From Erysipelotrichaceae bacterium (GTDB lineage Bacteria; Bacillota_I; Bacilli_A; RFN20; CAG-826): 64,000 bases of DNA. The stretch spans positions 5,144 to 69,143 of the forward strand of contig SVBB01000004.1 in NCBI GenBank assembly GCA_015059105.1. Direction: 5' to 3'. The position numbers were made by a program, and so were the translations under genes. This document shows, piece by piece, positions 18,963-51,563 of the stretch. Numbering within the stretch: the first letter of the stretch is position 1; the number at the start of each line of letters is the position of its first letter. Under the pieces are notes generated by a model that saw nothing but the letters and a program-made list of their open reading frames with translations, had not been told where the DNA came from and did not search any database.

Positions 18963-19015
18963 AAAACACCTCCTATTTATATATACCCAAAAGGTCGCAT
19001 TTTTTCGGGAAACAT
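18963..19015 (-). repeat. Copy A of the recurrent promoter/RBS cassette, driving the Phd-PIN operon
   Basis: The sense strand reads ttcccgaaaaaatgcgaccttttgggtatatataaataggaggtgtttta-ATG. It is near-identical to copy B and related to copies C, D and E. Confidence 0.7.
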
Positions 19016-19017
19016 TT

Positions 19018-19335
19018 TTATATTTTTATAATTTTTTCAATATTTCCAAGTGAATAAATAATGCGACGTACTTCCATTATTAGTTCGTCTTCTTCTTTGA
19101 CGATGTAGAAAACAGTGTAGTTACCTACGTATATACGATAATAAGGGCTTTCTCTTTGCTTTTTAGATTTATATGGTTCGTAGGCTTTTGGAAAATAGCT
19201 ACGAGAAATAATTGCTTGCTCAACGTCGTCAATAAATGATTTTGCAGCAGATTCGTTTGTTAGAACATTATTGATGTAATTATATATGTCTTGAAGATCT
19301 TCAAAGAATAATGGTAGATATTGGATTTTGGTCAT
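19018..19335 (-). CDS. RelE/ParE-family toxin
   Basis: The ORF is 105 aa. YRIYVGNYTVFYIV is typical of RelE/ParE. It overlaps the upstream antitoxin with ATGA. Confidence 0.75.
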   Translation of the reverse strand: MTKIQYLPLFFEDLQDIYNYINNVLTNESAAKSFIDDVEQAIISRSYFPKAYEPYKSKKQRESPYYRIYVGNYTVFYIVKEEDELIMEVRRIIYSLGNIEKIIKI

Positions 19336-19580
19336 CTTTTATTAAAATGTCCAAAAACCTCTTCATGTGATAAACGTTTATCGGATTCGCTTGCTTGTTT
19401 TTCGGCTTCATCTAAAGCGTTTTCTATATTACTAGTAAGACGTTCATATTCTTGTATAGACATGACGACCATTGAGCCATATCCGTTTTTAGTTAAAATG
19501 ACCGGTCCTTTATTTAAAACGGCATTTTCGATATCGGTAAATTTGTTTCTTAAATCTGAAATTGGTCTGATGTCTAACAT
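19332..19580 (-). CDS. Phd/YefM-family antitoxin
   Basis: ISDLRNKFTDI...PVILTKNGYGSMVVMSIQEYERL is a Phd/YefM fold. It is translationally coupled to the RelE/ParE gene. Confidence 0.75.
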   Translation of the reverse strand: MLDIRPISDLRNKFTDIENAVLNKGPVILTKNGYGSMVVMSIQEYERLTSNIENALDEAEKQASESDKRLSHEEVFGHFNKR

Positions 19581-19654
19581 AATATTTTAATTCCTTTAAC
19601 TATCATAATATTATCATAACTATGCCAAATAACAATAAATGAAGTGGTTTTGGA

Positions 19655-19705
19655 ATCTCCTCCTATTTATATATACCCAAAAAGTCGGATTTTTTCGGGA
19701 AATAT
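19655..19705 (-). repeat. Copy B of the recurrent cassette, upstream of the Phd-RelE operon
   Basis: The sense strand reads ttcccgaaaaaatccgactttttgggtatatataaataggagg. It lies about 75 nt upstream of the antitoxin ATG. Confidence 0.7.
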
Positions 19706-19759
19706 TTTTAAAATTTTTTCGTTAAGACTAGTTTTTATCAAAGATAATTTGTATGATAT

Positions 19760-19975
19760 CTATGTTCGATAAGAGAACCCATCATCTACTGATGTAGTAG
19801 CGAGTGCCGGTTGGTGAAAAGGGCATGACTAGGTAGATGGACGCCACTCTCTTGAAGCGATTAATACCCGCCGTTAATGCTGACGAGATAGCATAATTGA
19901 GTGTCAATAATTATATTATTGGAAATAGGATGGTATCGCGGCAAATGTCGTTCCTAACAAGAACGTTTTTTATTT
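19760..19975 (+). ncRNA. T-box riboswitch leader of alaS
   Basis: The conserved T-box sequence aaataggatggtatcgcgg is at 19923-19941. A terminator hairpin cgttc-N7-gaacg plus a T-run is at 19949-19972. The stem-I region carries a candidate specifier GCC (Ala) at 19843-19845, followed by A. Confidence 0.7.
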
Positions 19976-48405: not shown

Positions 48406-48427
48406 AATAATAAGGAGGATATAAATT

Positions 48428-50260
48428 ATGGCAAAAGAAATTATTATTGGAATCGACTTAGGTACAACTAACTCTGTTGTTTCCTATTTACAAGCAGATG
48501 GAACTGTTAAAGTTATTCCTAATCCAGAAGGAACAATGACTACTCCATCAGTGGTTGCCTTTAAGGCAAATGGTGAAGAAATCGTCGGTAACGCGGCGAA
48601 AAGACAAGCGGTCACTAATCCAGACACTGTCTCTTCTATTAAAAGAAAAATGGGCAGTGCTGAAAAAGTCCACATCAACTGCGTTAACAAAGATTTCACT
48701 CCACAAGAAATCAGTGCAAAAGTTCTCGCATATATGAAAAAATATGCCGAAGATAACATCGGTCACAAAGTGAGCAAAGCCGTTATCACTGTCCCAGCTT
48801 ACTTCAACGATGCGCAAAGACAAGCGACTAAAGATGCTGGTCAAATCGCCGGTCTTGATGTCGTCCGTATCATCAACGAACCAACAGCTGCGGCTTTAGC
48901 CTATGGCTTAGAACAAGATAAGAGTGAAAAAGTCTTAGTCTTCGACCTTGGTGGTGGCACATTCGATGTCTCCATCCTCGATATCGGGGACGGTACATTC
49001 GAAGTTATCTCCACAGCTGGTGATAACAAACTCGGTGGTGATGACTGGGATGCTGTTGTTGCAGACTGGATCAAAGCCCAAATCAAAATCAACAATAACG
49101 TGGATATCACAGATAAAGCATCCTTACAAAGAATTAAGGAAGCTGCTGAAAAAGCGAAGATTGAATTATCATCTTCTCTTGAAACAGTCATCTCCTTACC
49201 ATTCATTAGCATGACTGCTGCTGGACCAGTTAACTTTGAAACAACTCTTACAAGAGCGAAATTCCAACAATTAACTCTCCATCTCTTAAAGAGATGTGAA
49301 GAACCAGTGAGACGTGCATTAAGCGATGCGAAGATGTCCGCAAGTGAACTCAACCAAGTCTTGTTAATCGGTGGTTCTATCCGTATGCCAGCGGTGCAAG
49401 ACCTCGTCAAGCAATTAACTGGTAAGACTCCAAACCTCTCTGTTAACCCAGATGAAGCGGTCTCTATCGGTGCGGCTTATCAAGGTGGTGTCGTCTCTGG
49501 TGATGTTAAAGATGTCGTCCTTCTCGACGTTACTCCATTAACATTAGGTATTGAAACTTTAGGTGGTGTGATGACTCCACTTATCGAAAGAAATACAACT
49601 ATCCCAACGACGAAGAGCCAAATCTTCTCTACAGCTGCGGATAATCAACCTGCTGTTGATATCATGGTCTACCAAGGTGAAAGACCAATGGCTCACGATA
49701 ACAAACTCTTAGGTCACTTCCAATTAACTGGTATTAAACCAGCGAGACGTGGCGAACCAAGAATCGAAGTCACATTCGAAATCGACGTTAACGGTATCGT
49801 TAAAGTTACTGCGAAAGACTTAGACACTCAAAAGAGTCAAGATATCACCATCTCTGGTAGCAACGGTCTTTCTAAAGAAGATATCGATAGAATGGTGAGA
49901 GAAGCAGAAGAAAACGCGGAAGCTGATAAGAAGCGTAAAGAAGAGACTGAAGTCAAAAACAAAGCTGAAAGCTTAATCAATGATATCGACCTCGCTTTAC
50001 AAGAAAAAGGTGAAGGCATGGATCCTGCTCAAAAAGAACAAACTCAAAAGCTCAGAGATGAACTCAAAACAGCTTTAGATAATAACGATATCGAAACTTT
50101 AAAGAATCGTTTGAACGAACTTGAACAAGCTGCAGCATTTATGGCTCAACAACAAGGCGCTAACCCAGGTGCTGGCGCGGGTGCTAACCCAGGTACAGGT
50201 TCTACAGGCGGTAACGATGATGTTGTCGATGCCGAAGTTGTCGATGATAACAAAGCCTAA
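48428..50260 (+). CDS. dnaK: Chaperone DnaK (Hsp70)
   Basis: [18 protein letters not shown] and the C-terminal lid are present. The protein is 610 aa. Confidence 0.95.
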
Positions 50261-50276
50261 TCATTATTAATATTAA

Positions 50277-50302
50277 TAAAGGGGGCTTATTGCCCCTTTT
50301 AG
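50277..50302 (+). terminator. Partial terminator/attenuator between dnaK and dnaJ
   Basis: aaagggggc-ttat-tgcccctttt. Confidence 0.55.
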
Positions 50303-50324
50303 AGCATTATAGAAAGGAGCATTT

Positions 50325-51467
50325 ATGGCCGAAAAAAGAGATTATTATGAATCTTTGGGGATTAAGAAAAACGCGACTAAGGATGAGATCAAATCTGCAT
50401 ACCGTAAATTAGCAAAACAATATCACCCAGATAATAAAGAAACCGGCAACGCCGACAAATTTAAAGAAATACAAGAAGCCTATGATGTTCTTTATGACGA
50501 CAAGAAAAGAAGCTTGTACGATCAATTTGGTCACGCAGCCTTTGAACAAGGTGCTGGCGGAGGAGCGGGCGGTAACCCATTTGGTGGTGGCTTTGGCGGC
50601 TTCCAAGATATGGGAGATATCAATCTAGGTGATATCTTCGGCCAATTCTTCGGTGGTGGTGCGCGTAGTAGAGCAAGAGCTTCTACAGGACCGATTAGAG
50701 GTCGCGACTTAGCGATGCAAGTGCAAGTGGAGTTCATGGATGCAATCAATGGTAAAGTTGTACCAGTAACTATTAACCACGATGAAACTTGTGAAGCATG
50801 TCATGGCAGTGGAGCGAAATCTCCAGATGCGATTAAGACTTGTCCAACTTGTCACGGTTCAGGACGAGTGATTAGACAGCATCAATCCTTATTCGGAGTG
50901 ATGCAAGAAGAAACCGCCTGTCCACAGTGCGGTGGCGCGGGAAAAATAATTACCGATAAATGTCCATCCTGTGGTGGCAAGGGTTATAACCGTAAAAAGA
51001 AGACCATCAATCTCAATATTCGTCCAGGTATCAATACTGGTCAACAGCTCCGTCAACCAGGATATGGTGAAGCGGGACAAAGAGGTGGCCAACCTGGCGA
51101 TATGTACTTTGAAATATATGTTAAACCGCATCCATATTTCAAACGTGAAGGCAATGATATCCATATTGAAATCCCTCTTGATTTCGTCGATGCGATTCTC
51201 GGTACGACGATTGATATTCCAACTGTTTATGGCGATAAATCCTTAGCGATTCCTGCTGGTACTCAGCCAAATCAGATCTTAAGAATGAAGGGACACGGTG
51301 TTAAAGATTTTAGAACCGGTAAACCTGGTGATCAATACGTCCATTTGAATATCAAAATGCCGACAAGTGTCACTCGCGATCAAAAGCGAATTCTTGAAGA
51401 ATATAAGAACACATCGAATGCGAATGACTCATTCTTCGCAAAATTCATGAAAAACTTCAAAAAATAA
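50325..51467 (+). CDS. dnaJ: Chaperone DnaJ
   Basis: The J-domain (YYESLGI...HPD), a G/F-rich region and four CxxCxGxG zinc-finger repeats are present. Confidence 0.95.
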   Translation: MAEKRDYYESLGIKKNATKDEIKSAYRKLAKQYHPDNKETGNADKFKEIQEAYDVLYDDKKRSLYDQFGHAAFEQGAGGGAGGNPFGGGFGGFQDMGDINLGDIFGQFFGGGARSRARASTGPIRGRDLAMQVQVEFMDAINGKVVPVTINHDETCEACHGSGAKSPDAIKTCPTCHGSGRVIRQHQSLFGVMQEETACPQCGGAGKIITDKCPSCGGKGYNRKKKTINLNIRPGINTGQQLRQPGYGEAGQRGGQPGDMYFEIYVKPHPYFKREGNDIHIEIPLDFVDAILGTTIDIPTVYGDKSLAIPAGTQPNQILRMKGHGVKDFRTGKPGDQYVHLNIKMPTSVTRDQKRILEEYKNTSNANDSFFAKFMKNFKK

Positions 51468-51563
51468 GACCCTCAAGGGTCTTTTCTTTTATTTGTAAAA
51501 ATTGCGGAAAATAAAATCCGAAAATTTTCACTTTTTCCCCTCTTATATATTAGGAGGGTTTTT
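51466..51563 (+). repeat. Copy D of the recurrent cassette (dnaJ terminator hairpin plus conserved core plus tatata plus aggagg), running into the ATG at 51564
   Basis: agaccc-tcaa-gggtct-tttcttttatTTGTAAAAATTGCGGAAAATAAAATCCGAAAAttttcactttttcccctcttatatattaggagggttttt-ATG. It is identical to copy E over the capitalised 33 nt and both copies begin with the same 7-nt-stem hairpin. The 3' part is near-identical to copy C. Confidence 0.75.

Follow-up and report, generated by a model that had tools for sequence, protein, structure and literature searches.

Five copies of a repeated intergenic unit

The window analyzed here, a 64,000-nt stretch of contig SVBB01000004.1 from an Erysipelotrichaceae bacterium (36% G+C), carries five copies, A to E, of a short repeated unit in which a CCGAAAA box is followed by a -10-like hexamer and a Shine-Dalgarno (SD) sequence. 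A preliminary description of this DNA had reported the five copies, and we found them at the coordinates and in the orientations it gave; all five are intergenic, and each is oriented toward the gene downstream. The copies and the genes behind them are as follows.

18236-18962, minus strand: phd-PIN toxin-antitoxin pair behind copy A (Phd PF02604, PIN PF13470)
18960-19022, minus strand: copy A, in the interval from the parE stop to the phd(PIN) start; box CCGAAAA 19008-19002, -10-like TATATA 18985-18980, AGGAGG 18974-18969, ATG 18962-18960
19018-19658, minus strand: phd-parE module, located between repeats A and B; it has a promoter-like site of its own
19659-19712, minus strand: copy B, repeating A in direct orientation ahead of the inserted phd-parE module; box 19698-19692, TATATA 19675-19670, AGGAGG 19664-19659, with no start codon after it
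26558-26621, plus strand: copy C, taking up the whole interval from the greA stop to the comEA start; box 26569-26575, hexamer TCTTAT 26592-26597, AGGAGGG 26603-26609, ATG 26619-26621; terminator-like hairpin GCCCTCT...AGGAGGG with a T-run, 26588-26618
26619-29206, plus strand: comEA-comEC operon behind copy C (Pfam HHH_3/SLBB and Lactamase_B/DUF4131)
44622-44727, minus strand: copy D, 3' of the amylase stop, with small open reading frames (ORFs) downstream; terminator hairpin 44727-44711, shared block 44708-44676, box 44675-44669, hexamer TCTATA 44652-44647, AAGGGGG 44640-44634, ATG 44624-44622
51466-51566, plus strand: copy E, 3' of the dnaJ stop and upstream of the C39-peptidase-domain gene; terminator hairpin 51466-51483, shared block 51485-51517, box 51518-51524, hexamer TCTTAT 51541-51546, AGGAGGG 51552-51558, ATG 51564-51566; second hairpin CCCTCT...AGGAGGG, 51538-51558
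51564-54803, plus strand: gene string behind copy E, encoding a C39-peptidase-domain membrane protein, followed by ybeY, era and recO

Pfam upheld the earlier gene calls for Phd and PIN, Phd and ParE, ComEA, ComEC, the alpha-amylase and the Peptidase_C39 protein, and identified DnaJ as well. The nearest match of the window C39 protein was the mycoplasma peptidase-domain ABC-transporter family (N-terminal half).

Copies A and B are near-identical (49 of 52 positions), as had been noted, and D and E do share an identical 33-nt stretch, TTTGTAAAAATTGCGGAAAATAAAATCCGAAAA, although the string printed for it in the preliminary description had 32 nt. Also common to D and E, after the amylase gene and dnaJ respectively, is the hairpin AAGACCC-N3/4-GGGTCTT with TTTCTTTT, which a terminator scan flagged at both places. 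The near-identity claimed for C and D was not borne out: counted from the box, these copies agree at only 25 of 46 positions, and C resembles E instead (41 of 46). The core proposed for all copies, ttcccgaaaa with AGGAGG, is not exact throughout, as D and E read aTCCGAAAA and the SD of D is AAGGGGG; in the window genome the box can be written YCCGAAAAWWT. Four of the copies (A, C, D and E) end close to an ATG, at 5-9 nt, as described. In B, 75 nt separate AGGAGG from the phd start, and a separate promoter-like site, TTGTTA-N16-TAATAT, intervenes. The label of terminator unit suits D and E and not A, B or C. The upstream hairpins of D, E and a sixth copy, F, described below, are G+C-rich stem-loops with a T-run just after a stop codon, as in intrinsic terminators; at A and C the box region begins 12-13 nt past the stop codon of the preceding gene, and no terminator is present there.

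The pattern CCGAAAA-N14-22-TATATAT matched five times in the window, against 0.02 matches expected from shuffled sequence; the spacer in these five was 16-19 nt (CCGAAAA-N16-19-TATATAT), and the matches of CCGAAA-N17-18-T[AC]TWWW in the window were copies A-E only. Neither the window nor a further 15 kb of flank, taken from sibling contigs, yielded an additional copy with an nhmmer profile. When genome contigs were scanned with CCGAAAAWWTN6TTTN{3,9}TATATAT, at least 112 chance matches were returned from unrelated phyla, and among the matches listed none was followed by GGRGG. A stricter pattern, applied to metagenome contigs in a collection that does not hold the window's organism, returned seven stretches, among which L122 was the only clear family member and L120 was doubtful.

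Downstream of copy D (44420-44640, both strands) lies a 26-aa hydrophobic ORF, MDYSVVTSLIILVILLLFMGNKKDPR, which has its own SD. A second ORF, of 40 aa, overlaps it in a different frame, and from the opposite strand a terminator-like hairpin (44471-44497, plus strand) converges on the 3' end of the 26-aa ORF. The arrangement recalls type I toxins and their antisense RNAs; the locus gave no match in Pfam or Rfam.

The box is uniform within a genome and differs between genomes

We collected the orthologous regions of related genomes through homologues of DnaJ and of alanyl-tRNA synthetase (AlaRS). Identities to the window proteins, and the boxes found, were as follows.

Window: box CCGAAAA in 5 of 5 copies
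L129: DnaJ 98% identical
L139: AlaRS 96% identical; box GCGTCGAAAT in 3 of 3 copies
L134: AlaRS 90% identical; box (C/T)GTCAGATT in 2 of 2 copies
L136 and L126 (same sample): AlaRS 86% and DnaJ 74% identical; box CGGTAAAA in 3 of 3 copies
L128: DnaJ 70% identical
L138: AlaRS 73% identical

The layout ahead of phd-PIN, comEA and the C39 gene is kept in relatives whose AlaRS is 86-96% or whose DnaJ is 70-74% identical. In each, an A/T-rich stretch, the box, a variable patch, a T-run, a C- or G-rich patch, TATATA, AGGAGG and ATG follow in this order. The box itself, of about 10 nt, is specific to the genome and common to all loci within one genome, and each genome's box word is hardly present elsewhere in the compared loci.

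This behavior is opposite to that of the rest of the unit. In ungapped alignments anchored at the SD, the 10-nt box core was 86% identical between paralogous copies within a genome and 41% identical between orthologous copies of different genomes. For the 24 nt from box to SD, paralogues were 50% and orthologues 65% identical. The 3' half thus appears to be inherited locus by locus, while the box shifts in step at all loci of a genome. Since the sequence common to the A/B/C type and the D/E type amounts to only about 10 nt, we judged it too short for gene conversion to explain the identity of the boxes, and the simplest explanation of the pattern would be a trans-acting reader whose specificity drifts.

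A more distant relative, L138, whose comEA-comEC orthologue shows the Competence domain, carries an extra unit of like layout (...CAGTCTATATAGGTGAGAGGG-N7-ATG) between greA and comEA (14330-14440, plus strand); the ORF behind it (MKILTLTIAFSSFPL...) is small and hydrophobic. The T-run and the TATA stretch are 15 nt apart in both units of L138, as opposed to 3-7 nt elsewhere. An excess of divergence between strains at copy D was also considered and set aside, as the value there (about 10% per 100 nt, against an average of 3.8%) is within the regional scatter.

Spacing of the box, the hexamer and the SD sequence

We measured the box-to-SD distance between the first base of the hexamer in the box and the opening A of AGGAGG. 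Copies A, B, C and E, like the three of L139, have 34 nt; L134, L136 and F have 34-35 nt, and D and L126 have the longest distances, 36 and 37 nt respectively. The distance is near-constant despite differing inner segments, such as GGG/TATATAT/AAAT as opposed to GCCCTCT/TATATAT/T, and it matches a sigma-70-type geometry with a 6-nt -35 element, a 17-18-nt spacer, a 6-nt -10 element and 5-6 nt to the start. The hexamer at the fixed -10 position is TATATA or TATTTA in the phd-type copies, TCTTAT or TCTTTA in the comEA- and C39-type copies, and TCTATA in D, F, L128 and L138. With such a geometry, transcription would start on the first A or G of the SD, which would account for the gap of always 0-5 nt between TATATAT and AGGAGG; an ordinary promoter followed by a leader would not require so short a gap. 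The earlier description of TATATAT and AGGAGG as an ordinary -10 element with a downstream ribosome-binding site (RBS) was in this respect overstated, as the tight geometry would force the start onto the first SD bases.

A scan for the sigma-A consensus (TTGACA-16/18-TATAAT, at least 9 of 12 matches) found no site at any of the five window copies. With a housekeeping position weight matrix, these copies scored 3-7, against 12-15 for the hrcA, hsp20 and greA promoters. The exception among the relatives was the phd copy of L134, in which TTGACC-16-TATAAT scored 13.0, equal to the window hrcA and hsp20 promoters. Its TATAAT lies in the same TATA stretch, and the predicted start falls at the end of the SD, not at its beginning.

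A sixth copy precedes an operon with an MG284-family gene

Through the protein encoded downstream in L122, we reached a 170-kb Joint Genome Institute contig, L145, in which a sixth copy, F, lies at position 9953; it is also present in L122, and would come from the same genome as the window or from a sister genome. Copy F follows eno and consists of the terminator stem AAGACCCC...GGGGTCTT, then the block TTGTAAAAATTACCGAAAATAAAAT, as in D and E, and the same box, with TCTATA and, at 35 nt, AGGGGGG. The operon behind it encodes:

Gene 1: MG284/MPN403-family protein (NF045770, 64.8 bits, above cut-off)
Further: two proteins without a family match, and a T2SSE ATPase
Further: two polytopic membrane proteins and two small hydrophobic proteins

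The T2SSE ATPase is nearest to TadA/VirB11, with a weaker likeness to ComGA. A structural model of the MG284-family protein, with a predicted recognition helix at about residues 81-100, resembles sigma region 4, and the protein is therefore a candidate for reading the box. A sequence-profile search of the PDB, started from this protein, returned nothing meaningful.

After the F operon (L145 15241-20045, plus strand) lie genes for a 981-aa ResIII/restriction-endonuclease-like protein and an N6/N4 DNA methyltransferase, a pair that looks like a type III-like restriction-modification system.

A putative promoter of a competence or DNA-transfer regulon

From the motif, its geometry, its conservation, its co-variation and the gene content behind it, we infer that the repeated unit serves as promoter for a small regulon, of the competence or DNA-transfer type, with a dedicated, fast-evolving sigma-like reader, and we give this reading a probability of about 55%. 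The preliminary description had proposed ccgaaa as the -35 region of a dedicated regulator or alternative sigma factor, perhaps of the competence type. The comparative evidence lends this partial support, namely the promoter-like distance of the box to the -10-like hexamer and SD, the co-variation of the boxes within each genome, and the sixth copy ahead of an operon with a secretion/pilus-type ATPase.

The proposed promoter would comprise an A/T-rich upstream stretch, a non-canonical box at the -35 position, a 17-18-nt spacer with the variable patch and the T-run, and a -10-like TATATA, TCTTAT or TCTATA. The transcription start would be the A or G that opens AGGAGG, leaving an mRNA 5' region made up of the SD, a 5-9-nt spacer and the start codon. 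The box would not be read as TTGACA by the housekeeping sigma factor; its reader would be a dedicated sigma-like factor that evolves fast and differs in specificity among related genomes. In the window, the regulon would hold comEA-comEC, the C39 membrane protein gene with ybeY, era and recO, the two toxin-antitoxin pairs and the small-ORF locus, and outside it the operon headed by the MG284-family gene and including the TadA/VirB11-type ATPase. It is the presence of these genes behind the promoter that suggests a role in competence or DNA transfer. At comEA, and at the C39 gene in the window, there is a terminator-like hairpin in which the SD forms the 3' arm and the -10-like hexamer falls in the loop. 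Such a hairpin would terminate or mask read-through coming from greA or dnaJ, and transcripts initiated inside it would have their SD free for translation.

Several points weigh against this interpretation. The main weakness is that the hexamers of comEA, C39, D and F do not have the A at -11, which -10 elements of the sigma-70 type normally need. The best sigma-A-like hexamers, TATATT and TATAAT, sit 3-5 nt further downstream, and a start directed by them would land at the end of the SD or just beyond. An mRNA that begins exactly at its SD is unusual, and the constancy of the distance could also stem from shared ancestry. Copies A and C have no upstream terminator, so that the genes behind them could simply be co-transcribed with the preceding ones. 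Toxin-antitoxin pairs are not classical competence genes. Copies A and B are clearly homogenised over their full length, so that some concerted evolution by gene conversion does occur. The window contains no alternative sigma gene, rpoD being the sole sigma gene seen across about 100 kb, and the model of the MG284-family protein is of only moderate confidence (predicted local distance difference test score, pLDDT, 65) and was built on a four-sequence alignment.

The closest precedent is the regulon of Mycoplasma genitalium sigma-20 (MG428), whose promoters read TTGTCA-N18/19-ATTWAT, the orthologous genes of M. pneumoniae having TTGGCR-N18/19-ATTYAT (PMC4446450, PMC6105099). Its -10 element lies 7-17 nt from the ATG at most listed genes, and the regulon includes recA, ruvAB, MG_390 (sunT) and MG_285/286 beside MG_284, with ComEC as a candidate member (PMC4446450, PMC6105099). 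Both systems have a sigma-70-like layout of two hexamers, with a -10 element very near the start codon and A/T-rich throughout, and a -35 element that differs between related species at all orthologous promoters; in our set, too, five genomes have five variants of the box, each uniform among the copies of its genome, and the TATA stretch is constant. The gene content is also alike, in the C39-type exporter (MG_390 sunT), the MG_284-286 locus, the candidate ComEC promoter and the recombination genes. The host lineage of the window is a relative of the Mollicutes. Unlike sigma-20 promoters, however, the units have a spacer of 17-18 nt (18-19 nt in sigma-20), a strong SD, toxin-antitoxin pairs among the targets and boxes unrelated to TTGTCA, save for a TTGTCA in one L134 copy. 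With boxes CCGAAA, GTCGAA, TCAGAT and CGGTAA, a 17-18-nt spacer and T[AC]TWWW, they depart from the sigma-20 consensus. By this analogy the element would work like a sigma-20-type promoter but cannot be filed as one.

The promoter reading can be taken further, into a version that we consider unlikely. In it, the MG284/MPN403-family protein would be a stand-alone reader of the -35 box, resembling sigma region 4, and another sigma factor would read the -10 element. This would be a split-sigma or appropriation-like arrangement with positive self-feedback, the MG284-family gene being first behind one such promoter. DNA uptake, a TadA/VirB11-type machine, the C39 peptidase and toxin-antitoxin modules would form the regulon, with transcripts that start exactly at the SD and promoters embedded in terminator hairpins. 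In the middle promoters of phage T4, the MotA box replaces the -35 element ("sigma appropriation") in a phage-encoded system that requires AsiA. Both arrangements would combine a sigma-70-type -10 element with a non-canonical box near -30/-35 read by a separate small DNA-binding protein; they differ in that the candidate reader here is sigma region-4-like and that of T4 has the MotA fold. If this version is correct, the system would be a free-living, ancestor-like counterpart of the Mycoplasma sigma-20 recombination and gene-transfer regulon, and the MG284 family would gain a function.

Our literature search found no paper on competence control in Erysipelotrichaceae-like Bacilli. Should the broader promoter reading hold, it would define the cis-element that governs a regulon for competence or DNA transfer in an uncultured lineage of these bacteria and connect that regulon to the recombination and gene-transfer regulon of mycoplasma sigma-20. 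It would also provide a natural example of a promoter box and its reader shifting specificity together between close species, a candidate function, as -35 reader, for the uncharacterised MG284/MPN403 family, and a compact design in which a promoter lies within a terminator hairpin and the RBS is exposed only on transcripts started internally. The genome-specific box could be used to predict the regulon in each related genome.

Alternative explanations

The box might instead be the -10-type element of a competence sigma factor like ComX, SigX or SigH, a reading we consider unlikely. With a transcription start about 7 nt past the box, the leader would be 30-35 nt long, made up of the T-run, C-rich patch, TATATAT and SD, and its SD would be in the normal place. 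The streptococcal SigX/ComX box (cin-box) consists of a T-tract and TACGAATA or TcCGAATA, 7-25 nt from the ATG for most late genes (PMC6001120). The units likewise have a T-tract and then a CGAA-containing octamer: TCCGAAAA agrees with TcCGAATA at 7 of 8 positions, and TCCGAAAA and CCCGAAAA match at 6-7 of 8 in the window, while the L134 and L136 boxes (GTCAGATT and CGGTAAAA) match poorly. In both systems the element precedes comEA, a core SigX target in streptococci, as well as a pilus-ATPase operon, and defines a small dedicated regulon. However, the cin-box is a -10 element, whereas the box described here lies further out, as 39-45 nt separate its end from the start codon, and a conserved TATATA is found at the distance from the SD that suits a -10 element. 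A SigX-like start would leave this TATATA, the T-run and the fixed box-to-SD distance unexplained, and comEA transcripts would carry both arms of the terminator-like hairpin that hides their SD. The cin-box is, moreover, stable across streptococci, whereas here the box varies between close genomes and TATATA stays constant, which is how a -35 element behaves in the sigma-20 case.

Somewhat less probable still is a dispersed intergenic repeat with no dedicated factor, derived from one ordinary intergenic segment (a weak or no housekeeping promoter, an SD and sometimes a terminator), spread by duplication or recombination and kept alike by gene conversion. Full-length duplicates do occur: A and B bracket phd-parE, and such pairs are near-identical within the window and within L139 and differ between the two. 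Neither the terminator stem nor the 33-nt block common to D, E and F would be needed by a promoter factor. The region of D is absent from L126, and L128 has an amylase gene at that region on the other strand, with no copy detected. Against this, the A/B/C and D/E/F types have only about 10 nt in common, much less than homologous gene conversion requires; the 3' halves show no homogenisation and track locus orthology; and the same three loci keep their copies across five genomes with conserved geometry. Correia elements, BOX and RUP are short dispersed intergenic repeats with hairpins and expression signals, and the units are like them in being short, repeated and intergenic with such contents. 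They differ from them in having no inverted terminal repeats, a low copy number, a strict orientation and distance to the start codon, and orthologous positions.

That the units are cis-acting RNA leaders, in which an SD-sequestering hairpin, attenuator or RNA thermometer controls translation or read-through, seems quite improbable. Hairpins of the form CCCTCT-loop-AGGAGGG, followed by a T-run and flagged by the terminator scan, are strong (-11 to -16 kcal/mol) at no sites other than comEA, in four genomes, and window copy E, and folding z-scores were about -2.6 to -2.8 for C, E and L126. For A, B, D and F (4 of 7 copies), by contrast, folding was no better than that of shuffled sequence (z -0.15 to -0.6). 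RNAalifold returned no consensus pairs over 14 copies, and the SD-sequestering hairpin was paired in 69% of cells, the same as in shuffled controls, with no informative covariation. In Rfam, no copy had a match at the gathering threshold, and A/B and D had none at E<=1. A conserved hairpin between box and T-run was also rejected, as folding there was no better than shuffled and the alifold was without pairs. The lack of a conserved RNA fold points to a signal at the DNA level, and a local fold cannot account for a box that is identical across loci yet different between genomes. The comEA/E hairpin would then be a locus-specific addition.

The idea of a miniature mobile promoter cassette, raised in the preliminary description and extended here to a miniature inverted-repeat transposable element (MITE), a Correia-like element or an integron attC-like site with an outward promoter, is highly improbable: the units do amount to a family of hairpin-bearing repeats, new copies are found together with DNA insertions, namely the phd-parE module and the amylase region, and 52-nt direct repeats flank the phd-parE insert, but the terminal inverted repeats, short target-site duplications and presence/absence polymorphism of MITEs and insertion sequences were not seen, the positions are orthologous in relatives, the 12-13 nt before the box at A and C leave no space for an element body, a viral contig scan and blastn against plasmids and phages gave no matches, and the gene lists, which were not supplemented by a dedicated search, show no integrase or transposase gene beside any copy. 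We accept that recombination at the units accompanied gene insertions, and that blocks were duplicated (A/B, and the terminator with its block in D/E/F), and reject the mobile-element reading. An integron attC or cassette array was set aside in particular because the units precede genes, have no conserved palindrome and are dispersed, with no integrase among the annotated neighbors.

Other candidates were also discarded. CCGAAAA is not over-represented outside the units, its other five occurrences being in coding sequence, and it does not behave as a DNA uptake sequence. By-eye comparison with PurBox, CodY, ComK (AAAA-N5-TTTT), the LexA Cheo box, Spo0A, NrdR boxes and WalR gave no fit to all copies, and none of the sigma-B, -D, -H, -I, -54 and extracytoplasmic function (ECF) promoters, compared in the same way, fits the sequence and spacing of every copy. 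The Phd antitoxin found no support as a reader of the box, its N-terminal DNA-binding part being well conserved between genomes with different boxes.

Insertions near the units and other features of the window

The phd-parE module is absent in L134 and L136 and present in L139. It lies between the ancestral promoter unit and phd-PIN, flanked by the 52-nt direct repeats A and B; in L139, too, the two flanking repeats are near-identical to each other, and they differ from the window pair. The module has its own promoter/operator-like repeat, TTATGATAATATTATGATA. The Phd-PIN proteins are 42-59% identical between the window and L139, L134 and L136, whose GreA proteins are 87-96% identical, and all the Phd proteins have a conserved N-terminal extension, ISHDxIENRT, preceding the Pfam Phd domain.

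Further features of the window are:

3338-4163, plus strand: MNT-type nucleotidyltransferase (helix-turn-helix and NTP_transf_2) and HepT-like protein, a toxin-antitoxin module
19753-19958, plus strand: T-box leader, before the 860-aa alanyl-tRNA synthetase gene (19991-22573)
29303-30654, plus strand: 180-aa ORF without a family match, then an AbiEii nucleotidyltransferase toxin (PF08843), directly after comEC
40977-42416, plus strand: 479-aa protein, also found after lepA in relatives, in which a weak Fic/DOC match (E 3e-4, below cut-off) is the sole recognisable feature
44207-44280 and 46693-46765: pairs of inverted repeats like the controlling inverted repeat of chaperone expression (CIRCE)
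59217-59816: trmK region

The T-box leader scored 59.8 bits (E 3e-12), below the Rfam gathering score of 93, and is well conserved in L134, L136 and L139. The 180-aa ORF and AbiEii gene have a canonical promoter, TTGACT-16-TACAAT. As L134, L136 and L139 have an LMWPc phosphatase gene at this position instead, the pair looks like another inserted toxin-antitoxin module. The CIRCE-like repeats, TTAGCACTC-N9-GAGTGCTAA with 1-3 mismatches, number two before hsp20 and two before hrcA, each pair overlapping a near-perfect TTGACA-16-TAyAAT promoter, and their presence before hsp20 suggests that this gene is a member of the HrcA regulon. The trmK region diverges by 13-29% from L129, against an average of 3.8% over 21 kb, which suggests a recombination patch from a more distant relative. 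Altogether the window holds at least four toxin-antitoxin modules, or five if the small ORF after D is counted.

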